A DNA stretch of 64,000 nt from Amphiscolops sp. MND2022 (Eukaryota). The translations under genes and the position numbers were made by a program. Shown here one piece after another: positions 21,901 through 52,100 of this stretch. The notes below the pieces were generated by a model, which ran no database searches, was not told where the DNA came from, and saw only the letters and a program-made list of their open reading frames with translations. Every line of letters starts with the position of its first letter. The first letter of the stretch is position 1. The stretch lies in the NCBI GenBank assembly GCA_964187785.1, contig OZ076412.1:63178001-63242000 (forward strand), written 5' to 3'.

Positions 21901-21959
21901 CGTGATCTGCGCTGGTGAGGCTGTGATCAGCTAAGTAGATGGCGTCGTGTGGGAAGCTG

Positions 21960-21973
21960 CTGGGCCCATAACC
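21960..21973 (-). promoter_or_regulatory. Copia primer-binding site (initiator tRNA-Met half-molecule type)
   Basis: GGTTATGGGCCCAG directly after the LTR, the same PBS type as Drosophila copia; second copy at 26373-26386. Confidence 0.85.
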
Positions 21974-26313: not shown

Positions 26314-26386
26314 CGTGATCTGCGCTGGTGAGGCTGTGATCAGCTAAGTAGATGGCGTCGTGTGGGAAGCTGCTGGGCCCATAACC

Positions 26387-26706
26387 TTTCAAAACAGGTT
26401 GGGTAGGAATGAAGAACTGAATTGAGATTGATTAGTTATGATCAGACTTGGTTTATGTATATACAATTGCAATTGATGGTGGAAATGGTTCAGCATCGGG
26501 TATATATAGCACCGCGACAGGTACTTGTCAGTAAACAAAAAGTGTGCGGTATCAATAGTTGTCTGTTGTATCGCACAAACAGGTACATCAATGTGCGACA
26601 TCAAAAGTTGTGTGTGCGATGTCATCTGGCAGGTACTTGAACCTTAGGGGTCGTGGCTCATCATTTGATCGTTCCCGCCTTGCGAGGCGGATGGCAAACC
26701 TTGATA
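26387..26706 (-). repeat. Copia 5' LTR (320 bp)
   Basis: Followed on the sense strand by the PBS; TATA-like CTATATATA inside. Confidence 0.93.
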
Positions 26707-29065: not shown

Positions 29066-30283
29066 ATGTTGCCTAACGTTCTACCAGTTGAAGCTTCACA
29101 TAGCTCTTTTGTGACCGGTGATCGAACCAATTTTATTGATTTGCAAAACATTTATCTGGAAGTGAAGTGTAACATCAAGCGCGGGAATGGCAATGCTTTG
29201 CGGTATGATGCGACGAGTGCTGCAAACACTGATTCACCAATATTCGTAAACAATGCTTTGCATTCTCTCTTCTCAGACTGCAATATTGTTGCGAATGAGG
29301 TGAGAATATCCTCTGCAAACGGATATTATGCACCAAAGGCGTTCCTGGAAACTGAGTTTTCAACAAACAAAGAGAGTAAAGACACTTGGTTGAAATGTCA
29401 AGGTTACAACTATGAAGAAGATCCTTCAGATTTTACTACCGCTGCCTTCACTAGCAGGGAGCAAGAGACGCGAACTTCAAATACAATTACCTTGATTGGA
29501 AAAATTGCTGGTGATTTCTTTACCTGTGACAAACATTTGCTCAGTGGAGTTACCCTTCGTCTAACATTTCTTCGAACAAGGCCAGAGTTTTGCGTCGTTT
29601 ATGACGATGATGCCAAAGACTATAAAGTTGAAATTACACAAGCCAATTTACATGTGCGCAAAATGACCGTATCCGAGAATGTATACACAGCGATTGAAAC
29701 AGCTCTTACGAAAACCAATGCAATGTATCGCTATACAGAAATAATTCCCAAATCGTTTTTAATGCCGCAAAACAGTAACAGTTGGAACCAAGAAAACATT
29801 TTCAACGGCGAGCCCATACGCAGATTTGCTATTGCAATGACATCAAACCGAGCATTCCTTGGTGGTAAAACACTCAACCCATTTCATTTTCAAAAGTTCA
29901 ATCTTGCAACAATAACTGTTTATCGCAATGGATACCCAGTTGCTGGCACCCCTTTGCAAACCGATGACGACAAGAAACTTTACCTAAATTCACTTGAGGC
30001 ATTAGCCTTTGGTCATCACGGACATGGAATACCGTTCAGCAAATTTACAGATCACTATTTCATGGTATTCGACATGACTAGTACCCAACAAGCGTTGCAT
30101 GATTACTTGTATCCCGAACTCACTAATGCTTCAATCTCTGTAGAACTACGGTTTACAGCAGGTTTGGCAGCAAACACTGAGATATTTTTCCTGGGGGAGA
30201 GATCATCAGTTATCTACATCAATTCGCAGAAAAAAGTCTCCAAAAATCGTCCTATAGAAACTGGAATTGAGACTAAAAAATGA
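29066..30283 (+). CDS. Major capsid protein (double jelly-roll, PY), probably with an N-terminal in-frame deletion
   Basis: IDLQNIYLEV, NNALHSLFSD, DFFTCDKHLLSGVTLRL, ANLHVRK, FQKFNL, FMVFDMT; EASHSSF runs straight into VTGDRTNF, shorter than the remembered family pattern. Confidence 0.88.
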   Translation: MLPNVLPVEASHSSFVTGDRTNFIDLQNIYLEVKCNIKRGNGNALRYDATSAANTDSPIFVNNALHSLFSDCNIVANEVRISSANGYYAPKAFLETEFSTNKESKDTWLKCQGYNYEEDPSDFTTAAFTSREQETRTSNTITLIGKIAGDFFTCDKHLLSGVTLRLTFLRTRPEFCVVYDDDAKDYKVEITQANLHVRKMTVSENVYTAIETALTKTNAMYRYTEIIPKSFLMPQNSNSWNQENIFNGEPIRRFAIAMTSNRAFLGGKTLNPFHFQKFNLATITVYRNGYPVAGTPLQTDDDKKLYLNSLEALAFGHHGHGIPFSKFTDHYFMVFDMTSTQQALHDYLYPELTNASISVELRFTAGLAANTEIFFLGERSSVIYINSQKKVSKNRPIETGIETKK

Positions 30284-30714
30284 TTGACGAGATAGAATTG
30301 TGGCGTCTAATCAACAGATGCATACATCTCAAGTACAAGTTTGCAGGTGTCTATGCAGCAGACAACTTTCCCCTTTATATTGATTGCCAATCATTCTTGA
30401 TTGTAAACTCTGACAAAGCAAATCAAAAAGGCACTCATTGGATTTTACTTGGTCGCAAAAAAGATGATGACCTAGTTTTTGCAGATCCACTTGGACTACC
30501 TATTCACTACTACAAGCATATTTGTGACCGGCTATCATTTGCGGATTTCGGAGTGAGAGAACTTATCAAGGAACCCTTGCAGAAACTATCATCAGACTTG
30601 TGCGGACTCTACTGTATACATATTGCTCATTACATTTTTAGTGGCTACTATCCTACTATACCATTCATAAGTGAAAAGGAGCTCTTTCGATTTATACATC
30701 ATTTTATCATATGA
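30280..30714 (+). CDS. pro: Adenain-like cysteine protease
   Basis: GVYAAD, IVNSD, GTHW (His), FADPLG (Asp), LQ....CGLYC (Gln, Cys). Confidence 0.92.
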   Translation: MIDEIELWRLINRCIHLKYKFAGVYAADNFPLYIDCQSFLIVNSDKANQKGTHWILLGRKKDDDLVFADPLGLPIHYYKHICDRLSFADFGVRELIKEPLQKLSSDLCGLYCIHIAHYIFSGYYPTIPFISEKELFRFIHHFII

Positions 30715-32090: not shown

Positions 32091-35000
32091 ATGTTAATTT
32101 GCGAAACTTGTGATAAACAATTTGTCAATCGGCTTGGCCTAAATAGTCACCTTCGATCGCAAATTCATCAGGGTACTTCGAAAAAACCAAGAGTTGCTTG
32201 TTCTCAATGTGATAAAACATTCTCTTGCCGACAAAATATGAATCGCCACACCCGAGAAATTCACGATTACATAGGACATAAATCAGTGAAACAGTGCTCT
32301 TTGTGTCCCTTCAAAACAAAATTCATTCTGCAAATGTCTTTACATTTCAAAAAGTGCATAGTCAACTCATCCATAGAATTTGCTCTTACTGCATTACAGC
32401 ATTCGATAACTCCGATTCTCTTTATAAGAGAATCGCCCCATTAGGGCTGAGAAGAACAGCTTGAAGAAGCCAACCACTACAGCAATAAACGGATCGCTGA
32501 AGGTCTACACAATTCTGGGTAACGAAGAAGAGGACCTGTTTAAGTTCATGATGGACAAAAAGTCAGAAATTAACAGCATTATTCTTCTAAACACAGTTAG
32601 AAATTCTCAAAAAGTACAACTGTGTGCAACAATTGATTTAGAAAAGCCAGTTCGAGATGAAGATGATGACGAAAGCCTGTCCATTTTTGTGCGTTCCAAT
32701 ATGCAAGCTGTCTACAAGGAGGGTCTAAAAGACGAACAATATTTGCAAATGGTCGAGAAAATGTTGGCCAGTCTCTATACCTTCACAGCTTCGGGAAGCG
32801 GTTGGATGGTCCTAAAAATTGTTCGGCTTGAAATTAGAATAGCACTCTTTGCCCCCATGACTGGTTCGTCATATATTGCGCTACCCAACAAACTACAGAG
32901 CAGCAATTCATTATTGAACATACGCAACCGTGAAGACCACAATTGCTTTCTGTATTGTTTCACAGCAGCCTGGCATCGAAAGTATGGACCAGCACTTACC
33001 CCACCAGGACAACATCCGCGACTAAACAGAACTGATCCCAGGACATACTCGGATGCAAACCCCGTTGCACATCAACCTAGGGGTGAATTCGACATGCCCA
33101 TGGGTCTTGGACAAATTCCACGATTCGAAGAAATCAACAGGTGCAGAATCAACATTTTTCAGTAAGTAACATTGATTATCATTCTTTTGATTTTAAAACG
33201 GAAAAGTTCAGATATGGTGTTGCAAAAACTTTTTCAAACCGATGAACATTTCATGTATTGCGAAGTTTTGTTATGTTGACAGATTCGAAGACAAATCAAT
33301 TGTACCTGTTCGAGTGTCAAGTAGAAAGGGTGATCTTCTCGACGTTGACTTACTTCTGTTGGAGGATGGCTTCACACATCACTATGTTCTGATAACAAAT
33401 CTCAAAGTCTTGATTTGCACTGTGAAAAAACGAACAAACAACTATAAGGAGATATTATGCCGCAATTGCTTCCACATTTCAGCAACCCCGGATGTGTACG
33501 AGAGACACTTGAGGAGTTGTCTCTACAATGAACCCGCAATTATAAACATGCCCAGTGAAAACAAAAACAAGGTGAAATTCAGCAAATACAAAGCACGTTG
33601 GTTTGCACCAGTGGTAATATATTTCGATTTGGAATCATTAATCCAACCACTGGCTCAATGTTGTCAAGAAAGTCAAAATACTGAGACTACAGAACTGCAC
33701 AAGCCATGTGGATTTTGTTTGGTCGGGGTAGAGCACGGAAACACAGAACCGCTTTTTGTTCAACTCGATAGATCAGAGGACTGCATGGAAAAATTGATTA
33801 AAGCTCTAGAAACCATTGCTCGCGAATTTCATGCAAGGAAACAGACTCATAGATACTTCACAGGAACAGCACCGATAGACCCAGATGAAATAATCGACTG
33901 TTGGATTTGCGAAAAACCCTTTGGCGAAGAAGCTAAAGTGCTGGACCATTGCCATTATACTGGAAAATTTCTGGGACTTGCTCACAACGAATGCAACCTA
34001 AAACGTAAAACGCTCAACTTTATTCCTGTTGTTGCACACAACCTTTCAAACTATGACTTACACCACCTTTGCAAAGACCTTCATCACTTTGCCAAAGATT
34101 GCAGAATCAATGTCATACCACAGACGAGTGAAAAGTATATTAGTCTATCTGTTGGTGTACCAGTTCGCACCTACAAAGACAAGAATGGTTTGGAGAAAAC
34201 AGTTTACGAATATCTCAGGTTTGTGGATTCATTCCGTTTCATGACAAATTCGCTGGAAAAGTTAGTGAGCAATCTTCCAGCAGAGAAATTCACCTATTTA
34301 GACAATCACTTTAGTGTTTACCCTGAAGAAAAGAGACAATTGCTCCACGGAAAAGGCTTTTATCCTTATTCCTATTTTGATAATCATTCAAAATTCCAAG
34401 AGACTACGTTACCTTCCATTGATTGCTGGACAAACTCGCTCAAAGAAGGAGAGCAGAGCATAAGCGAAGAACAATGGCACCACGCAAACATTGTATTCAA
34501 GACGTTTGGCTGTGAAAATCTTGGTGATTATCATGACCTGTACTTGAAAACTGACACGCTTCTTCTAGCTTGCGTGGTGGAAGAATTCAGAAGGGTGTGC
34601 TATGAAACGTACAAACTAGACAGCATTCAATACATATCCAGCTCCCACTTGTCAGATGCTTTCCTCCGGACTTGTAAAGCAGATCTTTGCCTCGTTACAG
34701 AGCGAGAACACCTGGAAATGGTTGAAAACATGATACGCGGAGGGGTGTCTTCAGTTTACGAAAAGCGCCATTTCAAGTGTAACAACAAATATCTCAACAA
34801 TTATGATCCAACTCAAGAGGAAACTTATGGAGTACTGTTAGATGCAAATAACCTCTATAGGGGAATCATGGAAAAACTTCCCCTACCACTAAACAACTAT
34901 GAAACTGTCAACCTCGACTTACAACATATTCTGAAAACTTCAAACGACTCATCAATTGGATATATTCTCGAAGTTGACCTGGAGTACCCTGATTGCCTCC

Positions 35001-36643
35001 ATGATTCACATCGCGATTTTCCACTGGCGCCTACCAAGGAGATCATTTCATACCATGACTTGAGCTCTTGGCAACAAGACATTCTGAAAAAAAACCATTC
35101 ATTACATTCCAGCGGCAAAACAAGGAAATTGGTTCAGACACTATCTGACAAGACGAACTATACTGTACATTATATTACTCTCAAGTTATATGTCGGTCTA
35201 GGTATGAAAGTTACAAAGGTTCACAAAGTACTTCAGTTTCATCAGGCGAAATGGTTGAAACCTTACATCCAACTGAACACAACTAAACGACAGCAAGCAA
35301 AAAACAAATTCGAAGAAGGATTCTTCAAACTTATGAACAATAGCTGTTATGGAAAGACACTCGAGAGTAAGCGAAGGAGAGTAAACTTGCGCTTTGTACG
35401 CTCTGAAGAAGAGGTGAAGAAACAAACTTCGAATCACCTTTTCCAAGCATTCAAAATCTTTGATCAAAACTTGGCAGCTTTGATTGTGAAGAAGCGAATG
35501 ATTTTGTGGAACAAACCAACAATCGTGGGTGCGAGCATTCTTGATCTCGCAAAATACTACATGTACAATTTCCATTACAATGTAATGAAGCCAAACTTTG
35601 ATTGCCGGCTGATGTACTCAGACACCGACTCATTGCTTTACGAAGTTAAAGGAAAAGATTTTTACAAGGAACTAGAGACGAACCGAGACCTGAGACAAAA
35701 CTTTGACTTGTCAAACTACCCCCTCTCCCATAATCTATACAACGATTCACAAAAGCTGGTGACATTAAAGTTCAAGGATGAGTTTGGAGGAGTTCCAATT
35801 CAAGAATTCATCGGATTGAAACCGAAAATGTACTCCATACTTTACGGTGGAAAACAAAAAATGTCAGCGAAGGGAGTCACTCAGTCTGCTCAAACCAAAC
35901 TCAAGCATGAAGTGTACCGACGAGTTCTACTCACTGGGGAATCATTCAGAGCCATCAATACCAGCATTGGTTCAGTAGACCACCAACTGCAGACAATCCG
36001 GACAAACAAACTCTCTCTCAGTTGCTTTGATGACAAGCGATACATTAAAGAAGATGGGGTTACCTGTTTGCCACTGGGACACTATGCAATCAGAGACAAG
36101 GCGCTTCTTCAAGATATTCTGGACGATGATGACTGGGGAGAAGATTCAACACCTCCTAGTCCAACTTGGAGTGAATTTCAGTCATTGGGGTGGTTGCCAA
36201 TCAATAATCAAGAAACTAACGAGCAGCGCTCTGGCACTCCTAACGTGTACGATAACACATACGATCAGATGCTGGATTGGTCGCCACCAGATCCCGGATT
36301 GCATCAGAGAAGCTATTCGGAAGAAGAGCTCAATTATTTAGCAGACTTGGAACAGTCTGATGACGAGCAGTCACTTGCATCACGAAATCCTTTCATAGAT
36401 GATGAAGCAGAAGATGTTGATCTGGAAAGCTTCATTCTATCTTGCGATGAAGATGAGAGAAGGGGATCACAGGACACCCAAAGCAGCCATTCAAGTGATA
36501 TTCAAGTGATTGCGCAGTATACAGAGGATGAGAGAAACTTGTTGTCTGATATCGAACGATACGTGGACTTCGGAAGCGACGAGGAACCGAAAAAGAGACG
36601 GAAAAGGGCTAGAATCAGTGATTCAGAGAGTGACAGCGAATAG
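32091..36643 (+). pseudogene. polB: Protein-primed DNA polymerase B with N-terminal C2H2 fingers, TP-like region and EndoVII-like finger; one intron; two N-terminal frameshifts
   Basis: C2H2 fingers at 32091-32430; SGSGW...GSSYIALP...NCF; CWIC..DHCHYTG..AHNECN; ExoI YFDLES, ExoII HNLSNYD, ExoIII YLKTD; pol motifs DANNLY, KLMNNSCYGK, YSDTDS; acidic tail with PKKRRKR. Confidence 0.93.
33162..33282 (+). other. Spliceosomal (GT-AG) phase-2 intron in polB, 121 bp
   Basis: CA|GTAAGT donor and TTGACAG|A acceptor; splicing joins 32461-33161 to the 1133-aa ORF as INIFQ-FEDKSIVPVRVS. Confidence 0.85.
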
Positions 36644-36829
36644 AAACATGATAACTATTCATCTAACTTATTGTTCATGAAAGCTCAAGTACCATTGTAA
36701 TGTTTGCTATATTATTCTTTGAGTGGGTTCAAAAGTTTTGCAAGAAATGTGTTTTTGCTTCAATTTCATTGGTTGAGCAACTGCAAATTAGATTCAGAAG
36801 TGAGAACATTGATTTGAACAGTAAATCGA

Positions 36830-38330
36830 AAAGATCTAAGATTCGATATACACAAGCATATATAAGGTATATGCAGTCTATCTTTTGATATACAGTAGCA
36901 TACAGTAGGCCAAAATAGTCTAAGACTTGATATACACAAGCATACAAAGGATATATGCAGTCTATCTTTCAATATATAGTAGCATACTACATGCCAAAAT
37001 AGTCTAAGACTTGATATACACAAGCATATATGGGATATATGCAGTCTATCTTTCATCATACACTAGCATACTACATGTCAAAACTATCTAAGATTGGTTC
37101 TACAGAAGCATATACAGGATATAAGCAGTCTATCTTTCGTTATACAGTAGCATACCGTAGGCCAAAATAGTCTAAGACTTGATATACACAAGCCTAGATA
37201 GGGTAAATGCAGTCTATCTTTCATTATACAGTAGCATACCGTAGGCCAAAACTGTCTAAGATTGGATATATATTGGCATATACGGGGTATATGCAGTCTA
37301 TCTTTTGATATACAGTAGCTTACTACATGCCAAAATATTCTAAGATTTGATATACATAAGCATATATGGGTTATATGCAGTCTATCTTTTGATATACAGT
37401 AGCATACTACATGCCAAAATATTCTAAGATTTGATATACATAAGCATATATGGGTTATATGCAGTCTATCTTCCGATATACGCTAGCATACTACATGCCA
37501 AAACTATCTAAGATTGGTTCTACAGAAGCATATACAGGATATACGCAGTCTATCTTTCGATATACAGTAGCATACTGTAGGCCAAAATTGTCTAAGGTTG
37601 GATATACATTGGCATATACGGGGTATATGCAGTCTATCTTTTGATATATAGTAGCATACTACATGCCAAAATAGTCTAAGATTTGATATACACAAGCATA
37701 TATGGGATATATGCACTCTATCTTTCATCATACACTAGCATACTACATGCCAAAACTATCTAAGATTGGTTCTACAGAAGCATATACAGGATATATGCAA
37801 TCTATCTTTCATTATACAGTAGCATACTACATGCCGAAACTCTAAGATTTGATATACACAAGCCTAGATAGGGTAAATGCAGTCTATCTTTCATTATACA
37901 GTAGCATACCGTAGGCCAAAACTGTCTAAGATTGGATATACATAGGCATATACGAGATAAATGCAGTCTATCTTTCGATATACAGTAGCATACTGTAGCC
38001 CAAAACTGTCTAAGATTGGATATACATTGGCATATACGGGGTATATGCAGTCTATCTTTTGATATACAGTAGCATACTACATGCCAAAATATTCTAAGAT
38101 TTGATATACATAAGCATATATGGGTTATATGCAGTCTATCTTTCGATATACGCTAGCATACTACATGCCAAAACTGTCTAAGATTGGATATACATTGGCA
38201 TATACGGGGTATATGCAGTCTATCTTTTGATATACAGTAGCATACTGCATGCCAAAAAAAAGTCTAAGATTTGTTACAAACAAGCATATACAGGGTATAT
38301 ACAGTCTAGCTTTCGATTTGCAGTAGCATA
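36830..38330. repeat. Tandem array of about 18 x 84 bp (each a diverged 42-bp dimer) inside the Polinton
   Basis: GCAGTCTATC recurs at 36873, 36957, 37041, 37125 and onward; halves GTCTAAGATTTGATATACACAAGCATA / GTCTATCTTTTGATATACAGTAGCATA. Confidence 0.95.
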
Positions 38331-38661
38331 AATAAAAAATTTTATTGCTCGATTGAGCAAAACGAAATCAAATGCCCTGGGCCTACGATCTCAAACGATT
38401 AACACTTTTCCGAGGAAACAAATCTCAGACTAATGCATATGTTTCATCAGGGCCGCCCTGGACCACCTGGCACTAAGGCGTAGTAAGTGAGTCCATGCAA
38501 GGATGATGAAGTTCAGTGATGCATTTCATCTGGAAACATCCGAGGATGACCGAAGGGAAAAGCTACCTAAGACCGGACGAATCCGTTATACCTATCACTC
38601 AAAGATCAAAAAGCAGTAATGCTCAAAACTCGAATTTAACAAGGTTTAAACAAAAGAAAGT

Positions 38662-39408
38662 TTAGATCAAGGACAATTTTTGAAGGGCATCCTTGACAGC
38701 TTCCACTAAAGACCAGTTAGGACGGGTTGCATTGGTCGTGACACGGACTCCAGTGATCCCCGCAACAGTCATAATTTTTTTCAGCATTGGCTCTGCGACA
38801 ACTTCGTTGCACTCCTCCATCTTCACCCAACAGTTTGCAAACTGGCCTTCAATTGGTTTCGATATCTTTCTCTGCACTCGATGCAAACACAGTTTTGCAT
38901 TCTTCACAGCACGTTCTGTTGTTGTGGCTTCTGTCCGTCCACAGCTACTGCCTATGCCCACATAGCCAGCACCATCACCAACAGCAGCGTAAACTATGAA
39001 CCTGTACTGGCCCCTTCCGATCGAACTCACTTTCAGAACAGCTGTCCTCAGTTCTTTTCTGAAGAGCCAGTCAATAATCTCGGGCTCCTTTATTGGCTTT
39101 TTGGCAGCTAGTAGAGTCATGAAATTTACGATGACTCCACGCTTGACTAGTCTGCCGATGTGTGTTTTAGGTTTCCATTTTACACTCAACGATTTCAAAC
39201 GTTCGTCGATGGGTTGTTGATTCTCTTTATCAGTAGACGACGAGGCGACATGAGGACCTAAGCGAACCCTGACCTGGATGTTCCCGGTGGATTTCACCTT
39301 CAAAACCGGGGACGAAGGTGGGGAGAAATCAGAAGATGAACTGGACTCACTGAATGAAGATGACGAAGTGGAAGACATTTCGTGAACAAAAAACACTGAA
39401 AAAACCAT
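38662..39408 (-). CDS. RPS2: Divergent 40S ribosomal protein uS5 (RPS2) homologue with a Ser-rich N-terminal extension, Polinton-encoded
   Basis: WKPKTHIGRLVK ~ WVPVTKLGRLVK; PIKEPEIIDW ~ PIKESEIIDF; RFIVYAAVGDGAGYVGIG ~ RFKAFVAIGDYNGHVGLG; AVKNAKL ~ AIILAKL; KKIMTVAGI ~ KKLLMMAGI; AVKDAL ~ ATFDAI (reference motifs recalled from eukaryotic RPS2); intronless; probable start M11 at 39378. Confidence 0.88.
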   Translation of the reverse strand: MVFSVFFVHEMSSTSSSSFSESSSSSDFSPPSSPVLKVKSTGNIQVRVRLGPHVASSSTDKENQQPIDERLKSLSVKWKPKTHIGRLVKRGVIVNFMTLLAAKKPIKEPEIIDWLFRKELRTAVLKVSSIGRGQYRFIVYAAVGDGAGYVGIGSSCGRTEATTTERAVKNAKLCLHRVQRKISKPIEGQFANCWVKMEECNEVVAEPMLKKIMTVAGITGVRVTTNATRPNWSLVEAVKDALQKLSLI

Positions 39409-39953
39409 GGTCTGATACTGATAAAATATTCAGTATATCAAATTGATATTAGCAGAAAAACAATTGATATATGAAAATGAAAACAAAATAATAATATAAA
39501 AATAGTCCTCAAGAAGTCCATCGAAATCAGTTAGATAATTACTAATTACATTCCATAGTCATTTGACATTTTTACATCATTCAATTTTTAATGTAACAAG
39601 CCATAGTGGAAATTGATCTTTTCAATTGTACAGTCTGATAATTTTACAGAATATTTGAATCTTTCATTCAAAAAATTCAAGAAGTATATTAATTTTTTGA
39701 TACAAAAGATATTCGAATTTTTTCTATAAAAACAGGGTTAACATATTCATTAAGTTCCTAAAATCTGTCTTGCGCAAAAATAGAAATTAGGCTTCCTCTG
39801 ACAGAATTTTGATATGCGGAACGATTATATAAACGATCTAAAAATGTTCATGTCTATATTATATAATTGCTCATTTATATATTATACAAATCAATTAAAG
39901 TAAATGATTTATAAAAATGAAATAATTCAACAAATTAAAAATTATAAATATCC

Positions 39954-40036
39954 GCACATGGAATGACTTGAACCCACGTGCACAAGATCAAGGGCTTCTG
40001 TGAACACTAGCATCAGCCACTGGGCTATGTGGGTGC
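39954..40036 (-). ncRNA. Degenerate tRNA-like Pol III unit just inside the right TIR, pointing inward
   Basis: A-box TAGCCCAGTGG and B-box GGTTCAAGTC; stems pair poorly; T-rich stretch downstream. Confidence 0.35.
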
Positions 40037-40215
40037 TTGTCATAGCATGTTCAAGTTGTTTATATCTGACAATTGGTTCATCTTTACTTGGAAATCAAAT
40101 CAGTGACCAACTAGTATTAAGACATCTACACGTATAAGTTTTAATTAATATAAGCTAGCCGTATTAAGTCAGCTTGAATAAAACTAATATACAATAAACT
40201 TTTAGCATTGTCAGA

Positions 40216-40294
40216 AGCCCCGTGGCCCAGCGGTAAGCCATCTGACTCCGACCCCACCGGCGCGAGTTCGAGCCCCACCATCACCTAAAATTTT
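40216..40294 (+). ncRNA. tRNA-Trp-like Pol III unit in the right TIR, pointing outward
   Basis: GCCCCGTGGCCCAGCGGTAAGCCATCTGACTCC resembles the tRNA-Trp 5' half; B-box GTTCGAGCC at 40266-40274; TTTT at 40291-40294. Confidence 0.5.
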
Positions 40295-40415
40295 CAATAT
40301 TATTTATGACCCGATACTAGTAAATTTGAGCCGGTCTTACCTCGGGTCCCCATGTTTTAAGATTGGTTATGACCCGGACCCGTTCAAATCACCCGGCATA
40401 TTTACTCCCACTACT
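40218..40415 (-). repeat. Polinton right TIR (198 bp)
   Basis: Reverse complement of 13488-13685; followed by TSD CATCTA. Confidence 0.95.
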
Positions 40416-40739
40416 CATCTATAAAGGCAATGATGATAATTCGTGAATTATTCAACATTTTTTGTTGCACTGTGTAATCCGCTTAGAAATTCAAGCCCCT
40501 CTAAACATTTGAATTCGATCTGCCCGCTCTATTTAGAGTGTATTTTCAATGCTTTCATATATCTTCCTTTTGATATATTTACATCATTTCGACCTACCCT
40601 GAGTTTATCCGGTTTATGTCGGATTATTCGGTTTTAGAATCTCATTCTTCTTTGAAAGTTATCGAGCCTTGCGCGCCAGAACAGTGAAAATGAATGTAGT
40701 GGTTTTAGCCCCTAATTTTAAGTAGTGCAACTTGCACCG

Positions 40740-41720: not shown

Positions 41721-41730
41721 ATGTAAGGGA

Positions 41731-42220
41731 CCTGTACCATACTGAAACAACTCCAGTTGAGAGAGGACGAACTTTCACATACTTGGACTGATTCTTTCAA
41801 CCTTTCAAATACTTAATTTTTAAATGACATTCAATGTTTATTCTTCAAATCGGAATTTGACATTTAAATAACCTTTATACATAATGATTGGAATTACTGA
41901 ATAACAAAATCATAAGAACTATAATTGCAGTATAAAACAGCTTGGATTTGAATACTAAGGAAACTCACCAGGATTGTTGCTCACAGCACCCGATGATCCG
42001 CTCTGCCAAGACTGCTAAACAGCTGAGAAGTACTTGAAAAAGGAATCATTTCGTCAATGTTTGAAAGCGAGACATCAGGAGTTTTTGCCTCAGTTTCTAC
42101 TTCAATTTCTCGAATAGGTACTCTATCAGTTAGTTTGATTGATAAGCAAAGACTAGGGTCAGTTTGCATGCGAGACAAAAAGTCCGCAGCTGAATTAGCT
42201 TTACCAGGTATGTGCGCGAT
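41731..42220 (-). repeat. 490-bp inverted copy of 51912-52401 (pol end + cassette X)
   Basis: Reverse-complement match seen directly, including shadow ORF SRMQTDPSLCLSIK. Confidence 0.9.
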
Positions 42221-44558
42221 AAATTGCCAAATCCGTTAGCGCGTTGCAGAGGTGAACTGCCGGAATAATTCCCGGGAAAATGGTTTGCCTCATTAGGACC
42301 GAGGGAACTGAACATTTTCGGATTCGGTTTTGTATGAAAAGATGATATATCCACGGCATCAGATGTTTTGCTTGAAGATGCACACTGAAAATGATAACGG
42401 TCACCATGTTTGGATTGAAGTGACGGTATTTTGTTTTCGTGTTCTGTAGGGACATCTACCATTTGACGAAGCGGCAGTTTTCGTTTCAAATCATCGAAGA
42501 TCTTGGGAACACGAGTTGCCAAATTGTAGCGGTGATAAATGTACATGAATAACAGGTGAAGAGCCGTTGAAAAGACGAAGACAGTCAGTGTGAGCATAAA
42601 CGATACCTTGAAGGGTACATACTGATTGAATTCTTTAACAAGGGACGGCTTTAACAATTTCATATTTGATGCGAAAGGTCGCGCAATTTCCACAAGATGC
42701 TTGACTTCTCGTGGCTTCGGGCCTCTAGCAAGTTCCGTTTTAACTTGTTTCAACAACTTCACTCCTGCTTCGGTTCGGCTATTGAAAAGAGGGAGATCGT
42801 CCAATGGCGGCACTTCCATAATCAATGACTGTAGGGGATTCGGAAGAGAGACTTCCAATTTGATCGCTGGTACCTGTGTACAGCTCGATAAATCTGAACG
42901 AATTTTGATATTTGGTGTCATAATTTGCATCCCGCATTCTAACATAATCAGGCAGATGTGACAGCCTGGAAAAGATGTTGTTTTTGTAGAGGCTGATGAG
43001 GCCATTGATTCCCGAAAATTGAACTTGTTGCTTGCTGACGTGATAAGCCAAATTCCGAAGCCAAGATTCGTAGCTTGTTCGATTGTCGGTAAGTTAATAA
43101 TTTTGGTGTCACATACTGAAAGAGCTTCCATGGGCGATTCGAAATATAAAGTGGCCAGACAAGACGAATGTCCTATCTCTGTCGGAATAGTCTCGGAACA
43201 GATTCGGTAGCGTGAAGAGCCGAGGCATCGATCAACTTGACTAGCCGACAGTGGCGAAGATTCCATAAGATTTTCCGAGATTGCTAAGAAGGGAACTTCA
43301 ATATCCCACATTAAAGCAGACTCTGAATCATCTGGGAAAGGCATCGGAATAAGTTTTGCTTCGAAGAGACTGAATACTGTTTGCCGTGACGCGAGAGGAA
43401 TGTTGAGGGTTAACAATAAACCTTCAGAGACAGTAACCGCATCGGCAAGCAGACGCGAATCGTAATAAGATAAGAGATCAGACATCGGGATGGCCAACGA
43501 AAGGCGATCGCCGGCATTAGCCCTATCTCTATCTACACTCTCCAATATCACCAGTAGCGAATCGAGCGGTACTAAGGGCATCGGAAGGTGTCCCCGCAAA
43601 AGGACAGGTATAGAGTTTAAAACATTTATGCGAAAGGCAAATAGAGCTGCGCGGAAACTTTTGACACTTGCATGGATCATAGAAAGTAAGGACGACAAAG
43701 TGTCGAAGTTGAAATTTAATTGCTGGTTAGAGAAAAGCATTTGATCACAATCGCGCAAAACATGGAAATTTCTTTCAAAAACTGCAAATTGCTGTTCGAT
43801 CAGCGCCCAATTTTTATTCTTGGTGGCAATCATGTCGGCTTGTATGTCGTTGATAGCGGCAAGTTCATTTTCGATTAGAAAAAATTTGTTTTCGGTACTA
43901 CTCGAGAATTCGGTGACGTATTGAGATAGGATATCTTGGAAATCGGAGAGGCGTCGAATGTTCTCTGCATTCGCTTTGGACTGGTCCTGGCAAGTTCCAA
44001 AAATACCTTGTAGACCGCACGAGCCAGGACTTCCCAAAGCAACGCCTCCACCGAAAAGTCCTACAGCTGCAAGTGCGACCGCACCAGCACTAGCACCGCG
44101 TTTTTGGCGAGATGGTCGCTGAGGAGATGGCGGAGAAAGAAAGGTCGAAGTTTCATTTCGTAAAAGTAAAACATCGTTCGCGGCCTCGTTAATTTCGTGA
44201 TTGATTTGTACTAGGATCCAATGAACGTTGAATGAAGTCGAATTTGAATTGAAGCCTGTGGAAAAATTAAGGGGACAAAAGAGCGAAGGCAAGTCCCACA
44301 TCGAGCCAAGACGGTCGATCGTTCGTTCGATTTCATGTTTCAAAGCAAAATCGTAAGTCGGAAAAGGAATCTTAAATTCCACTGGAACAAACTTTTCGGC
44401 CAACAGGATTTTGCCACGCTCGTGAAATAGGATGCCTTTTTCTAATAATTCATCATGATTATTTGACGGTTGCAAATTGGAATCCCAATCAGGCCGAACT
44501 GAAGCCGGGGTGAAGAGTAAAAGAAAGACAAGTTGTAGAGGCTTTACTATACGAGCAT
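42221..44558 (-). CDS. env: Envelope glycoprotein (class I fusion, F-type) of a Ty3/Gypsy errantivirus-like element; probably spliced, C-terminus cut by the rearrangement
   Basis: Furin site RQKR followed by a Gly/Ala-rich fusion peptide GASAGAVALAAVGLFGGGVALG; long heptad repeat; Cys-rich region; TM VSFMLTLTVFVFSTALHLLFMYIY; upstream in-frame signal-like stretch LQLVFLLLFTPAS after a candidate acceptor TCTCTCCAG at 44559. Confidence 0.8.
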
Positions 44559-44932
44559 CTGGAGAGACTAAACGTGACGAAAGTAATTTTCCTTTTTGCG
44601 ACGATGGCGGTAGCCCGGTGGGCGTCGTTGCGGACAGTGCTCAAAATGTCAGTTATTGTATTTTGGACAGAAATGTAAATAAAAGCCTTTCGATGGAATT
44701 TGTCAGCAAACAAAACGAAAGAAAATTAAACTGTGACGAAAAGAGATTATCAAAACGTGGCCCATAAAGTGCTGGCCTGTGATTTTAGAATGTTTGCTTT
44801 AGGTTCGTGTCAGAAATACACATCCGGTTGACATTTACAGAGCACCGGTGTTTGAAAAACAACAAATGCTTATTTGATTATGTAGAATGGAAGAGCAAAA
44901 TGTCAAGCGTTGGTCGAGGTTTTTCAGCTAAA

Positions 44933-45253
44933 ATGAAAGCTACACTTGTATGTTGTGCCCTGATGAGCCTCTACATGTGCGCGACAGCCTGTGAATTGCA
45001 AATGTGGAGAGGGAACGAAATTTACTGTTGCAAAAACGGGACTGCTTTCGGAAAGGGAGCAAGTCGAGTGTGGGTGGAGCAGAGGCCCTTGCTCTGTGCA
45101 GCAAAGACAATGCATGAAAACAGCTTGAGTGGCTGGAAGATTGTAGTCATCGTGATAACTATCACAAGCATGGTGATCGGATGCTGTCAGTGCGTTTACT
45201 GTATCGCTGGAAAAGTATTGTTTGGCAATGATAAAAACAAAGAAAATGCATAA
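44933..45253 (+). CDS. Small type-I membrane protein (106 aa), function unknown
   Basis: Signal peptide MKATLVCCALMSLYMCATA; Cys-containing ectodomain with NGT; TM WKIVVIVITITSMVIG followed by CCQCVYC; short tail. Confidence 0.5.
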   Translation: MKATLVCCALMSLYMCATACELQMWRGNEIYCCKNGTAFGKGASRVWVEQRPLLCAAKTMHENSLSGWKIVVIVITITSMVIGCCQCVYCIAGKVLFGNDKNKENA

Positions 45254-45591
45254 GAAGCAGCTTACTCGTTAGTGTGAAGGAACTAGAATCATCGTTGTTA
45301 GTGTGTTAGTCCGAAGAAATGAACTACACTTTGCAGTTTGTTTATGATTTTTAGGGTTGCTGTTTTGTTTATTGTGAGTTCGTGCCAGAGTGCAGATGTT
45401 TGAAGAAATGATTTTTTTTGTTTTTTTTTGTCAGTGTGAGGTATTTTTCAAGTCCTCCTGCAGTGGCTATTTATTTACAAGCAAAGTGAAAACTAAAAGG
45501 AGGAGGTGGGTGCAAAGCGCGCCAAACCACAACATGTAGAAAACAAAAATAGGTAAACTTTTCAAATATTGTCCTTTGAACTTCAGAAAAA

Positions 45592-46190
45592 ATGGAACCG
45601 TTATTATACAATGCGCTGTGTCGAATGGCAGGCGCTGTAAGCTGTGAGGATGGCATTTTGACAGCAGAAGAAAAAAAATACTTTGGCCTGTATCTTCAAC
45701 GATTAAGTGTTAGGGAAGACGGGGGGCTCCTCTGGGACGGCCTAAAAATCCCAACAATGGATCAGTTAGAGAAAGTCCTGCAACCCGTGCATTTCAAAAG
45801 AATGGATTGGCATTGTCGCGATATGCGAACACTACGAGAAGCATTAGTGGAACGCGGATTTACAATGCCAAAATGGCTCGGAGGGCTCGGAACGAGTCTG
45901 TAAACTGTGAGTATAATAATGCTATGTCAAAATATTCTAAAGATAGGTGAATAAATGTATATCTAACGTTAAAGGTATATGCACAATTGTCCAAAATGCT
46001 TCTGGGCGTTCCACCAGGGGCATAATTGGGAGCAAGCAACAAGCGTCGCTGCCGAAAAACGAATAAAACTATGCGGACAATTGGGATGGAAACATGTCCT
46101 AGTCCCCGATGATTACCAAGGTGGCCGGCTACTAGGACTAGGAGCACCAAGTGAATTGCCTTGTAAAGCCGTCAAAGCACTAGGAGGGGG
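45592..46190 (+). pseudogene. Two-exon ORF with an integrase-type H2C2 zinc-binding domain (1-nt frameshift; cut by the inverted gag)
   Basis: VH..RMDWH...MPKWLGGL(E)RVCKL|YMHNCPKC; intron 45907-45974 with GTGAGT donor, CTAAC branch point and AAG acceptor. Confidence 0.55.
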
Positions 46191-46717
46191 GGTAGCGTCC
46201 ACGATAACCGCCGCGGTAACCACGATTTTGAGAATTTTGACCGCGTGAGTTACCAAAAGAGCCGCGTTGAGATTGTGAATTTTGATTATGGGAAACATTC
46301 TCTGTTTGTAGTTTCTGAACATTTTCAAGTTGATTAGAGAGTGCATTATTACGCTCTTCAAACTTTTTCGACATTTCGTTCAGACGGTTGTCAAGAGCTT
46401 CTTGACTTGTACTAAGTTTAGTGAGCGCGGTTACCAAGGTATCTGTTACTGTCGGTCCGATTTCACTAAAGGCGTCCATCGGAGAATCGTCAATTTTGCA
46501 TAAATTATGAATCGTTAATTGTTTCCTCGCAAAAATACAAAGATCCTCCACAGATGTGGTTTCCGGTTGTTCAAGTAGTTTCGCCCTTAGCCAACCTGGC
46601 ATATTTTTTATAAATTGTCGTCGTATCTGTATAGAACGTGCTTCTTGAGCAGATCGAAGCTGCTCTGCATTACGGGCAGTTTCTTGGTCAAAACGTGTTT
46701 GTTCAACCGCTGCATCC
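46191..46717 (-). repeat. 527-bp inverted duplicate of gag (48501-49027)
   Basis: Translation DAAVEQTRFDQ...RGGYRGRY matches gag with one substitution (T/A). Confidence 0.92.
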
Positions 46718-47055
46718 CAAATGGAATCATCCACTTCAGCTTGACTTCCCGTTTTTCATGTTTTCTTTCTAATCATAAAACTGGACTTCATTTATAATTT
46801 CTGTAAACATTCAATGCAGTATTTTTGGGCTTGCCATAAAAACAAAAAAAAATGGATTATCGACATATATTCCTCTGGGCTTTTGGATACTTGTGCTGGC
46901 TTTCTTCCTCCTATTTCATTTGGATATTCTCTTCTCACTGGACAATTTCTTTGGATATTCTTTTATTCTCAATTGGAATCTTCACTTGAAGTTGTCACTA
47001 TCTCCATCCGTATGATGGTTCTTCACAGGACCGGAAGTGTTTCGAAGGGAGGTAG

Positions 47056-47354
47056 TGTACCATACTGAAACAACTCCAGTTGAGAGAGGACGAACTTTCA
47101 CATACTTGGACTGATTCTTTCAACCTTTCAAATACTTAATTTTTAAATGACATTCAATGTTTATTCTTCAAATCGGAATTTGACATTTAAATAACCTTTA
47201 TACATAATGATTGGAATTACTGAATAACAAAATCATAAGAACTATAATTGCAGTATAAAACAGCTTGGTTTTGAATACTAAGGAAACTCACCAGGATTGT
47301 TGCTCACAGCACCCGATGATCCGCTCTGCCAAGACTGCTAAACAGCTGAGAAGT
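47056..47354 (+). repeat. Cassette X (about 300 bp), also present at 41733-42031 (+) and 52101-52399 (-)
   Basis: Near-identical sequence at three rearrangement junctions; in the orientation seen at 52101-52399 it reads exon-GTGAGT...TTTCAG-exon. Confidence 0.9.
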
Positions 47355-48099
47355 CATCACTAAGTCTCTAAAAGACAATACAGGACTTGGTGACAGGAAG
47401 GAAAACGATCCAATTGCAATCTTTCCTCGAACTACTTATCTTTTTCGTGAGGAAACATAGCACAGGCCACGCCCAGACGACCACTGCAACTCCACAGGAC
47501 TGCATCCCTGAAACAGTATACTCGACGGCAGTATCTCTGAAGACTAACAGAACTTCAAAAAAACTTCATCTTACACTATAAATTTTTCTTCCAAAAAGTG
47601 GATTTCGCACAACTACTGGAGATTTCATCACATCAACAACTTGGATGGGTATGACTTTCAAGCAGACTTGATGACTTAGATGTAACGAGACAAGACTGGA
47701 TTTTCTGAATACAACTATTCGTTTGGATAACAGACGTGAAAATGGTAAGTGCAAGCCAATTTGATGCAGTAAATTGATACGATGTTTCATAACTGTCGAA
47801 TTCATTCATGTTCATTTTCATTGCTCAACCCTAACGCTTCTTAATTCTTCTAGGCTCTTTATTCTCTCAGCTTATTTTAGACCCTTTTCTATGGGTTGTT
47901 TCATTCTTTCAATCAACGAGTTTTCGGAAACTTTTCTCTGCGTCTTTCTGTCTTAACTTTCGTTTTCTTTGACCTTTTAAACAATCGCTTTTTGCCTATA
48001 TTTTCAGTAACTTATTCGGCTCTTTCGAACACACACTGTTTTCTTTCAAATTCGTCTTCAAAGTTTCCGTACTCGTGCTCGCTCCGTCACTGAATAGAT

Positions 48100-49386
48100 A
48101 TGGCTCAAGCACAAATACAACTGAAACCTTACTCCGGGCTAGAGAAAGAAAGTTTCCGTGAATTTGAACATCTTTTGAGAAGCTATTTGGCAGTGGCTGG
48201 TATTGCAAACGCCCAACAAGCAAATTTTTTACAATTACATCTTCGAGATGCTGCGCTTCGATTTTTTCAAACTCTACCGGATGCCACACGGGCTGACCTC
48301 GATCTTTCTTTGACTGCTTTACGCGATAGGTTCTGTAATCCGCACTTACAAGAGCTACATGTACTTAACTTAGAAAATTTAAAGTTCGATTCGAAAACGG
48401 ATACTCCTGAAAATTTTTTGGTCACTTTGCAAACTAAAGCTTTGAAGGCGTATCCTGATCCAACTTTAGTTCCGGTCGCACCAATAGACGGAGCTGCACC
48501 GGATGCAGCGGTTGAACAAACACGTTTTGACCAAGAAACTGCCCGTAATGCAGAGCAGCTTCGATCTGCTCAAGAAGCACGTTCTATACAGATACGACGA
48601 CAATTTATAAAAAATATGCCAGGTTGGCTAAGGGCGAAACTACTTGAACAACCGGAAACCACATCTGTGGAGGATCTTTGTATTTTTGCGAGGAAACAAT
48701 TAACGATTCATAATTTATGCAAAATTGACGATTCTCCGATGGACGCCTTTAGTGAAATCGGACCGACAGTAACAGATACCTTGGTAACCGCGCTCACTAA
48801 ACTTAGTACAAGTCAAGAAGCTCTTGACAACCGTCTGAACGAAATGTCGAAAAAGTTTGAAGAGCGTAATAATGCACTCTCTAATCAACTTGAAAATGTT
48901 CAGAAACTACAAGCAGAGAATGTTTCCCATAATCAAAATTCACAATCTCAACGCGGCTCTTTTGGTAACTCACGCGGTCAAAATTCTCAAAATCGTGGTT
49001 ACCGCGGCGGTTATCGTGGACGCTACCGCGGAAACAATGGCAGAGGTTACCGCGGCAATCGCTCAAATTTTCAACGTCAACCATGGGGTCAGCGACCACG
49101 TTACCAATCATATAATCCAAATTACCAAAATTTCAATAATCAAGGCTGGCAAAATACTGTCGCTAATCAGGGACAACCTTCGTTCCCTACACCTAATGTG
49201 GATACACAACAGCCCACATTTGAAGTGTTTACGCCGGACCCTAACTATATGCCGTACACTCAGCAAAGTAGTGTTACGTGTCATAAGTGCGGCTATCCGA
49301 ACCATCTGGCACCTAATTGTACAGTGGTGGGTCCCGCACCGCAACGAGGTGCCCAGATGCCCTTTAATCAGTATCAAAAAAACTAA
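48100..49386 (+). CDS. gag: Ty3/Gypsy Gag
   Basis: Retrotrans-gag pattern (LQLHLRDAALRFFQTL, LTLQ.KALKAYP), RGG-rich region, CCHC knuckle CHKCGYPNHLAPNC. Confidence 0.9.
   Translation: MAQAQIQLKPYSGLEKESFREFEHLLRSYLAVAGIANAQQANFLQLHLRDAALRFFQTLPDATRADLDLSLTALRDRFCNPHLQELHVLNLENLKFDSKTDTPENFLVTLQTKALKAYPDPTLVPVAPIDGAAPDAAVEQTRFDQETARNAEQLRSAQEARSIQIRRQFIKNMPGWLRAKLLEQPETTSVEDLCIFARKQLTIHNLCKIDDSPMDAFSEIGPTVTDTLVTALTKLSTSQEALDNRLNEMSKKFEERNNALSNQLENVQKLQAENVSHNQNSQSQRGSFGNSRGQNSQNRGYRGGYRGRYRGNNGRGYRGNRSNFQRQPWGQRPRYQSYNPNYQNFNNQGWQNTVANQGQPSFPTPNVDTQQPTFEVFTPDPNYMPYTQQSSVTCHKCGYPNHLAPNCTVVGPAPQRGAQMPFNQYQKN
49377..49383 (+). promoter_or_regulatory. -1 ribosomal frameshift slippery site A AAA AAC (gag-pol)
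   Basis: Heptamer directly before the gag stop; the -1 frame is open into the protease ORF at 49470. Confidence 0.75.
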
Positions 49387-52100
49387 ATACGCCGCACAAG
49401 CAACCAGAGCCCATAAACAAGCCCGACACATATAATAACGACTTACAATCTCATGAAAAACTAGATGCAATGTGCGCCATTTTACCTTTGGAAGGTGAAA
49501 ATCTTAGTTACGTCAGACTTAAATTTTCGTCATTAACTAAACGTAGAGCTCTTATAGATACAGGATCATGCGCAAACGCTTTGCCACAAAACCTGTTTGA
49601 CGAGTTAGAAAAACAGAATCCTAACGGGATCATACTGGAAACGCCTAGCTTTACATCGGTCCGGATGGCATCTGGCCAGAAAATTGTGATCGATAAACAG
49701 GCAAAAATTTCGTTTTCTATTGGTCCGCATTTTTTGCTGATAGCTTTCTGATTCTTCCTACGATGAATAGTGTCATCTTGGGAAATCCTTTTTTCAAGAA
49801 ATTTCATATAACTATTGACCCCACAAACAATTTGTTGAAATTGCCTGATCTCACAGTTCAATTGAACGAAATTTCCGCTAAACGAGGCAAAAAACGCACA
49901 CTGACAACAAAAATCAAGCGAATACCGATTTTGTTAACGAATAAAGTTCATCTTAGCCCGCAATCGCAAAAACTCCTTGAATGTCAATTGGTTGACCAAT
50001 ATGCTTACCTGAAGAATTGTACGGGTATTGTAGTTCCCAATGAGAATATTGAGGACAAACCCCATCTTGCTTTAACATCTTCTCTGAGTAAATTGGACAA
50101 TAACAAACTTTACGTGTCAGCGCTCAATCTGTGCGACCACCAAATTACTCTTAGTAATAAAACAATTGTGGGATATTTTGAAATTGACAGAATCTCAAGC
50201 GGAACATCTTGCGGAAATTGATCCTCAACTTATTTCGCTTGCAAAACTACGCAATCCTGACAATTTTGAAAATGAATTAAATCAACTTATTCATGATGTT
50301 CATTTTAAAAAGCATGACACTCTCACTGGCAGACCTCCGCCGAATTATGAAAAACTATGGTTTCCCACGCCAGAAACGTGCTCCGATTTGTCAGACTTAA
50401 CATCATTGCAACGAGATATCTATGACCAAATTTTGCAGTTCCAACGCTTAGAAAAGATGAATCCGAAGGTTAATCCTGATGACAGGGACGCATTTTTGAA
50501 AAAATTCACATGGGATTCTTGTGTGTTGACCGCTGACCAAAAACAAAAACTAGAAGAATTTCTGATCGAATACCATGATGTGTTTGCTAAACATCGTTTC
50601 GATGTTGGTTATAATACTGAACTTAAGATCAAGTTAACGCCATCAAATCCACTTCCTGTTTATGTACAAGGTCCGCCGGCGCCAATTCATCTGCGAGATG
50701 AAATTTTGATTGAGCTAGCATTACTTCAATATTACAATATAATAACAACACTCTCGCATTCAAAGTACAGTAGTCCAATATTTGCTCACCGCAAACCATC
50801 AGGACAATTACGCCTACTCATAGATCTTCGTCGCGTTAATCATCTTTTGAGGCATGATTATTTGAACAGCAATTTTCCAATTTCAAATATGACTGATGCT
50901 ACCAACCATTTTGCGGGCAAACAACTCTTTTGTAAGTTAGATTGTTCGCAGGCCTATCATTGCGTTCAAATGGCTGATGACCTTTCGGTTCGATTGCTAG
51001 CATTTAATCTTGGTTCGCGAACATTTGCCTATAATTGCCTAGCACAAGGTCTTGATAAATCCGTCACGGGGTTTAGTTCTTTCATCAAACACTATTTGGA
51101 TAAATGCTTAGCGGCCAATGTTTGTACCCAATTTATGGACGACATTGCCGCAGGAGTAATATGTTTTGATGAACTTATCCCTACATTGACAAAAATTTTT
51201 GACTGTCTTAGAGCATCAGGTCTTAAACTTTCTGCTCACAAATGTGAGTTTGGAACCACAAAAATCGACTACCTAGGCAATACAATCACGCCTGCAGGGA
51301 TCACTCCAGAATCCGACAAAATCAAGAAATTTTTGGACAAAATTCGAATGGCTGATACTGTACGTCAAGTTAAACGTCTCATTGGTTTTGTTCAATTTTT
51401 CAGAAATTTTATCCCTGACTTGAATCAAAAACTTTTACCTTTCTATAAACTTCTCCGCAAAGACACTGAATTTATCATTAGTAATGCTCACACGGACGCG
51501 CTCGAAGCTTTGAAAATGGATTTGATAAATGCGACTAACTTAACACTCCGCCTTCCAAAACCAGGTTTACAATATGTTTTGCTCTGTGACGCAAGTTATC
51601 ACGGTACAGGTTTCGTTCTGATGATTGAGGACTACTTAATAGACCAAACAGGACAACAAAAGAAATCATACGCGCCCGTCTCCTTTGGTTCTCGACTCTT
51701 CAATGATACGCAATTGAAATTTTCAGTCTATTATAAGGAATTTCTTGCCTTATATTTTGCGTTGGACCATTTTGCTCATTTTCTTTGGGGAGCTTCGAAA
51801 CCTATCCTAGTCCTAACGGATAATCGTAGTTTAACTCAATTTTTTCAATCGAAAAGTATACATCCGTCGTTATGGAACTGTTTAGACCGTGTTTTGTCTT
51901 TTAATATTCTAATCGCGCACATACCTGGTAAAGCTAATTCAGCTGCGGACTTTTTGTCTCGCATGCAAACTGACCCTAGTCTTTGCTTATCAATCAAACT
52001 AACTGATAGAGTACCTATTCGAGAAATTGAAGTAGAAACTGAGGCAAAAACTCCTGATGTCTCGCTTTCAAACATTGACGAAATGATTCCTTTTTCAAGT
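49384..52100 (+). pseudogene. pol: Ty3/Gypsy Pol (PR, dUTPase-like spacer, RT, RNase H); two frameshifts; integrase absent
   Basis: PR ALIDTGS; RT KLDCSQAYH, QFMDDI; RNase H LCDAS, EFLAL, TDNRSL, AADFLSR; truncated by cassette X. Confidence 0.92.

Follow-up and report, generated by a model that had tools for sequence, protein, structure and literature searches.

How does a gene for a core protein of the 40S ribosomal subunit come to lie at the end of a Polinton, and what might its product do there? In the current study, we examined an open reading frame (ORF) derived from ribosomal protein uS5 (RPS2) in a 64,000-nt stretch of contig OZ076412.1 of Amphiscolops sp. MND2022 (positions 63,178,001 to 63,242,000; here called the window), together with its relatives in the same genome and with cellular uS5 proteins.

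Polintons (Mavericks) are recognized by long terminal inverted repeats (TIRs) whose ends consist of AGT repeats and by a target duplication of 6 bp, and the element at 13488-40415 of the window has all of these. Its left (13488-13685) and right (40218-40415) TIRs are each 198 nt long and 100% complementary, the termini read AGTAGT/ACTACT, and the 6-bp duplication is found at 13482-13487 and 40416-40421. On the plus strand, the element encodes a retroviral-type integrase (rve; 26893-27594; Pfam E 4e-12) and, in two ORFs (32548-36643), a homologue of protein-primed DNA polymerase B (pPolB). The latter was labeled from family-B motifs read in the sequence; in this region, Pfam returned only Endonuclease_7 and no polymerase family at E 0.01. 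Together, the TIRs, target duplication, integrase, and polymerase motifs bear out the preliminary description of the ORF as Polinton borne. Matches to an A32-like packaging ATPase (Pox_A32; 16244-16972, plus strand; E 4e-4) and an adenain-like protease (Peptidase_C5; 30280-30714, plus strand; E 2e-3) fell below the Pfam cutoffs, and two further genes, which we take from the Polinton gene order to be capsid candidates, had no Pfam match. The element measures about 18 kb without its insertion. Two identical tandem copia-type LTR retrotransposon units, with three identical LTRs at a 4413-bp spacing and 1360-aa ORFs, lie inside it at 17561-26686. The product of the left-terminal gene (13804-14118) is 104 aa long, with a hydrophobic stretch in its N-terminal part and an EGF-like domain (Pfam E 4e-4) in its C-terminal part. 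In the backbone group of the window (which includes loci L051, L068, L070, L074, and L099), pPolB is split into two ORFs (at 33150-33242 in the window) that share a gap of ~80 nt with splice-like ends; the other group has single frames of ~1475 aa. The gap may be an intron that one lineage of Polintons has acquired.

The uS5-derived gene (38662-39408, minus strand) is the last gene of the element; it is read inward from the right TIR and faces pPolB. Its frame is uninterrupted and specifies 248 aa, or 238 aa if counted from the second Met. An ORF had been placed at 38662..39177, and one is indeed there, but position 39177 proved to be the first base of Trp78 and is too early an end. Because that interval stopped at Trp78, a 77-residue Ser-rich N-terminal extension (residues 1-77; 39178-39408), which replaces the RG-rich/FxxxFG tail of the host protein, had been missed. 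There follow, on the same strand, an N-terminal subdomain of the eukaryote/archaea type (W-P-T-GR ... KEPEIID; 39070-39177), the dsRBD-like Ribosomal_S5 N-domain (38872-39033), which contains a shortened hairpin (39001-39033), and the Ribosomal_S5_C domain (38671-38802), whose last helix ends the protein.

Pfam placed the two domains in the order found in uS5. Ribosomal_S5 (PF00333; E 1.1e-7) scored 32.2 bits, above the cutoff of 27.1, and S5_C (PF03719; E 9e-4) scored 19.1 bits, below its cutoff of 21.5. At E≤1e-3, the protein matched 114 PDB sequences, the best being a eukaryotic uS5 (E 4.9e-15). An AlphaFold2 model of residues 72-248, made from an input alignment of 49 rows, reached a pLDDT of 95.4 and a pTM of 0.89; its top Foldseek match was rabbit uS5 (TM 0.88, rmsd 2.1 A, 28% identity), and all of the 50 Foldseek matches listed were eukaryotic ribosome entries. 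The colinear matches to both uS5 domains that had been reported at the outset are thus borne out by Pfam, by PDB sequence matches, and by the fold of the model. No viral model in BFVD matched that of the window protein at E≤1e-3.

The gene is a trait of an element family and not a one-off. The window protein matched 145 of the 150 sites scored in its own genome (286 candidates) and so has at least 145 relatives there; with PF03719 and PF00333, each of the 150 sites scored lay above the cutoff (318 and 347 candidates, respectively), a few of these being host genes. We picked 56 nonhost uS5-like loci by hand for diversity and fetched 10 kb for each. A pPolB gene facing the uS5-like gene was present within 10 kb at 53 of them; the other three are tandem arrays of copies, one of which ends ~8 kb from a pPolB match. 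An ACTACT end, a hexamer that may also occur by chance, lay within 2.6 kb of the 5′ side of the gene in 48 of 51 loci. Conversely, a uS5-like gene was found downstream of, and facing, 136 of the 149 best-scoring pPolB sites, a sample biased toward backbones resembling that of the window. Here, the best 150 of 2411 pPolB candidates were scored. Of these, 115 were paired by hand with a uS5-like match from the listings that lay on the facing strand no more than 8 kb away. Among the other 35, one was excluded as a further fragment of pPolB, 2 kb from a site already counted, and the gene was present in 21 of the 34 fetched. Among the 13 sites without it are insertions, one array of greater length, and two or more groups in which other genes lie downstream. 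Absence from other family members, which would have spoken against the preliminary description, was therefore not what we found: most of the sampled siblings carry the gene. As to the exceptions, two pPolB groups (L127, L129, and L138; L134 and L137) share other ORFs downstream, and no uS5-like gene occurs in the 5.5 kb read at these loci. Tandem arrays of uS5-like genes or gene pieces, mostly decayed, reach about ten copies, and one stands at a Polinton end; they were seen at L085 (C7 42.17-42.19 Mb), L093 (C12 37.27 Mb), L110 (C3 58.05 Mb), C6 51.32 Mb, C1 4.41 Mb, and C7 0.29 Mb. Two members on short public contigs (P0006 and P0014) were at best 53% and 65% identical to any of 150 scored sites of the assembly and may stem from other individuals or species.

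In a tree of 46 rows (20 Polinton, 16 eukaryotic type, and 10 archaeal type, the cellular labels being set by identity to host RPS2), the Polinton proteins formed one clade (support 99/96), to which the mutual attraction of long branches may contribute, and the Polinton and eukaryotic-type rows were split from the archaeal-type rows (100/99). A quick tree of 190 rows agreed on the Polinton clade (support 98). A clade of the Polinton proteins with host RPS2 was not rejected (AU p 0.074). The window ORF is 34% identical to host RPS2, against a median of 72% among eukaryotic RPS2s (18 eukaryotic-type sequences plus that of the host), a divergence far beyond that among RPS2 orthologues, as had been claimed. 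Median identities were 41% between eukaryotes and archaea, 35% (27-43%) between Polinton and host proteins, and 29% among Polinton proteins; therefore, the diversity of the family within this single genome exceeds that of uS5 between two domains of life. In the host itself, one contig carries a pair of canonical RPS2 genes with introns (L106 and L107; 80% identical to another RPS2); their exons are 91-94% identical, and they have different introns at the same site. An intron-rich, diverged host paralogue (L108; C1 84.635-84.645 Mb) is 42-58% identical to canonical RPS2, resembles a protein in metagenome record P0124, and is possibly a specialized ribosomal paralogue; L109 was taken as the mitochondrial S5 locus.

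The family is under purifying selection. Nine nonoverlapping pairs with dS of 0.05-0.5, drawn from 80 distinct open stretches, gave a pooled pairwise dN/dS (Nei-Gojobori) of 0.34 (p 5e-18), and the comparison of the window gene with that of L004 gave 0.29 over 129 codons. The value at high dS, 0.13, is biased low because those pairs were selected at ≥60% identity. Fifteen near-identical pairs gave 0.65 (p 0.052), as expected if postinsertion changes dominate. For the one pair in which both genes were measured, dN/dS was 0.05 for pPolB and 0.19 for the uS5-like gene. No positive selection was seen, every pooled dN/dS being below 1. Taken with the single clade and the fixed position, the value of 0.34 bears out the suggestion of long selection within the element. 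It is extremely improbable that the gene is instead a recent host retrocopy in neutral decay; its lack of introns, the unrejected clade with host RPS2, and the ratio of near-identical copies would suit such an origin, but frames that are open at 27-43% identity to the host, a fixed position in over a hundred elements, and the dN/dS at moderate distance, along with the tree, argue against it. The selection and position data refute such a retrocopy, and the dN/dS of 0.34 and the distance from the host gene likewise speak against a processed RPS2 pseudogene.

What has been kept of uS5, and what has been lost? We mapped on host exon 1 the 76 positions conserved in ≥90% of 18 eukaryotic rows. Thirteen of these are retained by ≥75% of the 51 Polinton rows (the window protein retains 29), and they consist of K83, R98, and a remainder of Gly/Ala/Val/Pro core positions; K/R100 and K/R134, like K83 and R98, are conserved in the family. 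At E≤1, Pfam found the Ribosomal_S5 N-domain in 49/49 members, S5_C in 44/49, and a dsRBD family in 0/49. The N-terminal subdomain (W-P-T-GR/EPEIID) is nearly intact in 28 of the 51 rows and absent from the other 23. Net charge stays positive (median, +10, compared with +15.5 for cellular uS5), falling to +2 in some alleles.

Two loops had been described as shortened, and both losses are real. The hairpin of uS5 lines the mRNA channel. Counted from the anchor Lys to Arg, it spans 14 residues in 39/39 cellular rows and 8-18 in the Polinton family, where it has 9 residues in 25 rows (the window protein, 5 residues shorter than cellular uS5, among them) and 14 in only 4 of 51. Several subfamilies have a long and basic hairpin, and the short form retains a Gly-Gln. 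The GYWG..PH loop, which host RPS2 has along with a C-terminal tail, is missing from all 51 Polinton rows, and with a median of 3 residues beyond the last helix, the eukaryotic C-tail is gone. Neither an RG tail nor an FxxxFG motif was found in any of 50 family ORFs; Ser runs occur in 11 of these. According to passages in PMC10216425, the N-terminal tail of uS5 binds PDCD2/Tsr4 and is a PRMT3 substrate, and both uS5 domains contact 18S rRNA; the same source places uS5 in contact with mRNA at the entry channel. It had been suggested that the Polinton protein could titrate uS5 partners (Tsr4, PRMT3, and PDCD2/PDCD2L). With the binding motif and the RG tail, as those passages define the sites, absent from 50/50 ORFs, neither titration of Tsr4/PDCD2 nor a role as a PRMT3 methylation substrate is supported. 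The further suggestion that it remodels 40S subunits is weakened, because the hairpin of otherwise invariant length, the GYWG loop, and the C-tail have all been lost. The third proposal, a dsRNA-binding decoy, is a candidate role for which 49 members gave no dsRBD family match at E≤1.

The gene lies in a ~2-kb cassette that is swapped between backbones, and this exchange within a hypervariable, genome-wide family is the main feature that the preliminary description had missed. The cassette extends from a tandem array to the right TIR (38331-40217; its left border shifts by ~300 nt between comparisons), and the array, 17.8 copies of an 84-bp unit between pPolB and the uS5-like gene (36835-38330), travels with the backbone. 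In 89 pairs of loci with pPolBs ≥95% identical (pairs that are not independent of one another), the alleles were <60% identical in 81, <45% identical in 74, and ≥90% identical in 3, with a median of 33.5%. The backbones nearest to that of the window (L051, L082, and L090) are 99%, 97%, and 93% identical to it, and their alleles are 54%, 25%, and 23% identical to its own. In the pairs examined, backbone DNA was 93-99% identical up to the array end, no alignment was obtained across the gene, and the TIRs were 76-98% identical; in the window, identity returns exactly at the inner TIR edge, 40218. The reverse also occurs, with cassettes that are 94% (L076/L077) and 88% (L066/L073) identical on backbones that are 72-73% and 71-76% identical, respectively. 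As a control, the left arms of five close siblings were 91-99.5% identical to that of the window, accessory genes included, and the EGF-like gene was 88-98% identical in the four of five siblings where it is present (the subfamily of one sibling, L177, was inferred). The window allele is rare: among the 40 of 55 candidates scored, it was found in three other places at 84-91% identity, and all three copies have stops or frame breaks.

The tandem array is likely to be the crossover zone. Arrays beside the cassette (36766-37059, minus strand; L002 2951-3697; L031-L040) would translate as Cys/His-rich or Lys-rich peptide repeats in open frames of up to ~290 aa, and their repeat unit varies by backbone group. 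Poly(A) signals placed back to back at the edge of the cassette were considered as a family feature and rejected (1 of 51 loci; 3.8% of shuffles). Just 3′ of the gene (38405-38510), a stretch of ~85-105 nt is common to 12 of the 51 loci at 79-99% identity, some of them with distant alleles; its predicted fold was no better than chance (z -1.56). It is perhaps a crossover point or a 3′ untranslated region element.

How might these features have come together? As its position and single clade show, a Polinton ancestor took up an intronless eukaryotic RPS2 copy once, long ago, and the captured copy came to occupy the terminal position, where it is read from the right TIR toward pPolB. On the evidence of sequence and model, selection preserved both domains of the fold along with a basic face of the sheet, and it let go of the regions through which uS5 docks into the 40S subunit and is passed to its chaperone. 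Outside the ribosome, the product may act as a small, basic, uS5-shaped RNA-binding protein, putatively shielding element RNA from host RNA surveillance or blunting that surveillance. Many long-diverged alleles persist and move between backbones, presumably by crossover in or near the array, with the TIR staying matched to its backbone, and the slot would then be a variable counterdefense locus in which a rare allele has the advantage. We tentatively favor this interpretation, namely, an extraribosomal RNA-binding mimic of uS5 used against host defense, in which both expression and activity are presumed. Features that are invariant from archaea to animals have been released, which makes stable service in the 40S subunit unlikely. 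Since backbones that are 99% identical can take up alleles that are only 25% identical, the protein is also unlikely to have a matched partner within the element. What remains of uS5 is its basic scaffold of two domains, with a hairpin that varies, and this leads us to favor an extraribosomal RNA-binding role. Several observations count against counterdefense: the missing dsRBD family match (0/49), the missing match to viral dsRNA-binding proteins (E≤1e-3), the lack of positive selection, net charges below that of cellular uS5 (+2 in some alleles), and a weak correlation between pPolB identity and allele identity (Spearman 0.17; Mantel p 0.0055; 48 loci, 1046 of 1128 pairs), by which the two genes retain some dependence on each other.

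Since 28 of 51 N-terminal subdomains are nearly intact and the short hairpin keeps its Gly-Gln, a role on the 40S subunit would also fit. In one form, which we regard as rather unlikely, the alleles would make up an interchangeable library of ribosome mimics, each engaging the 40S subunit or its surveillance differently and being swapped to outrun host recognition; if so, this would be a variable effector locus in a eukaryotic virus based on a ribosomal protein. In a second form, the protein would still occupy the position of uS5 on 40S or pre-40S particles, either in its stead or as a dominant-negative subunit, and would benefit the element by altering the mRNA entry channel, the choice of start codon, or the supply of ribosomes. 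The wholly retained fold (TM 0.88), the conserved basic residues and N-subdomain, the mRNA contact of uS5 (PMC10216425), and the entry of phage bS21 and bL12 into host ribosomes, as described in part of PMC6375957, all speak for such binding. Yet the host target is fixed while alleles only 23-40% identical swap freely, the hairpin that never varies in length in cellular rows does so here, the GYWG loop, C-tail, and chaperone tail are gone, and 23 of 51 rows have no N-subdomain; moreover, known viral ribosomal proteins are, in the accounts consulted, exchangeable late-assembly proteins with a pN/pS near 0.10. We consider this second form unlikely.

It is doubtful that the protein is a decoy for host factors that recognize uS5 by its globular part (PRMT3, ZNF277, importins, or the ubiquitin ligases of ribosome quality control), although passages in PMC10216425 indicate that PRMT3 and ZNF277 compete for one uS5 site and act partly without methylation, and it is the globular part that was kept and the methylated tail that was lost. 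A conserved partner should fix a surface patch, whereas the conserved positions lie mostly in the core, and the PDCD2/Tsr4 motif is absent from every ORF. Conflict among the elements themselves, by exclusion or self/nonself recognition, would have rare alleles beating other Polintons rather than the host. The many deep alleles swapped through one slot and the 2411 pPolB candidates in one genome suit this idea, but no cognate second gene travels in the cassette at the loci read, and a target matched to the backbone would sit poorly with alleles that swap freely; we find it improbable. A separate question is whether an arms race is needed at all. An old, weakly constrained end gene may simply drift and be shuffled by terminal recombination, in keeping with pooled dN/dS values that are all below 1 and with the mosaicism that the accessible text of 10.64898/2026.10.13.758929 reports as common in the Polinton virus group. 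This is possible but not what we would expect, given that the left-terminal genes of the same siblings do not swap (5/5 left arms) and that a uS5 homologue, not just any gene, occupies the slot in nearly all cases.

The finding is real and extends virus-borne ribosomal proteins to Polintons. Like eukaryotic uS5/RPS2, the Polinton protein has the domain order, N-terminal subdomain, fold, and glycine/alanine core; unlike it, the protein has a shortened or hypervariable hairpin, has neither the GYWG loop nor the RG/FxxxFG and C-terminal tails, and is carried in over a hundred copies by a mobile element. Poxvirus E3 is a viral dsRBD decoy against host RNA sensing and offers a possible working analogy, in that a small basic RNA-binding fold might be turned to the same end here; the uS5 origin and S5 C-domain set the Polinton protein apart, and such viral proteins match the model only at E 0.24-0.39, with no homology at any threshold applied. 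The first reports of eukaryotic viruses with genes for ribosomal proteins date from 2024, and the isolates described in the portions consulted are giant viruses that carry eL40 or S27a: eL40 in FloV-SA2 (PMC11499249) and eL40 plus S27a in ChrysoHV (PMC13595923). These, too, are borne by eukaryotic double-stranded DNA viruses. However, as far as those portions go, they encode small ubiquitin-fusion-type or late-assembly proteins in Nucleocytoviricota and not a core 40S protein in an integrated Polinton, nor have they radiated into alleles (median identity, 29%) swapped as a cassette. Phage bS21 and bL12 were likewise captured and are under purifying selection, but from what is described in PMC6375957 they enter ribosomes and stay near cellular forms (pN/pS about 0.10); the main text of that survey does not mention uS5. 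The element shares its core genes, host-like accessory genes, and interlineage recombination with the Polintons and adintoviruses described in parts of PMC8502044 and 10.64898/2026.10.13.758929, and differs from the mosaicism described there in that one terminal gene is exchanged between backbones that are 95-99% identical.

The term "ribosom" is absent from the main texts of PMC8502044, 10.64898/2026.10.13.758929, and PMC3597677. In its accessible part, a 2026 review (PMC13712778) lists several ribosomal-protein homologues in amoebal giant viruses and does not mention uS5; one passage of PMC7166083 deals with uS5. No Polinton ribosomal protein or viral uS5 was found in the open-access listings and main texts searched. 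Two single-protein queries of IMG/VR and a search of GenBank phages yielded no relative, and no PHROG family matched at E<0.07. The 26 metagenome matches were to ordinary cellular uS5, with Polinton genes beside none of them, and the ESM Atlas gave archaeal uS5 clusters only (0.88-0.89). A uS5 derivative in about nine in ten sampled Polintons would place such a gene in another group of viruses, involve a core protein of the 40S subunit, and show far deeper remodeling. A series of fold-preserving alleles, 20-55% identical and carried on near-identical backbones, makes the function of a viral ribosomal protein testable, as well as what uS5 does outside the ribosome, and the slot points to a locus of host-Polinton conflict of a kind little charted for Polintons.

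Other repeats share the window with this element. Positions 1-12800 hold tandem, near-identical LINE-like units with endonuclease and reverse transcriptase ORFs, one of them with a PHD-like finger. At 41722-52410, nested inverted repeats of 499-527 nt surround a reverse transcriptase/RNase H ORF and an ORF of 428 aa, and a small element at 60112-60633 has 24-bp subrepeats in its inverted ends.
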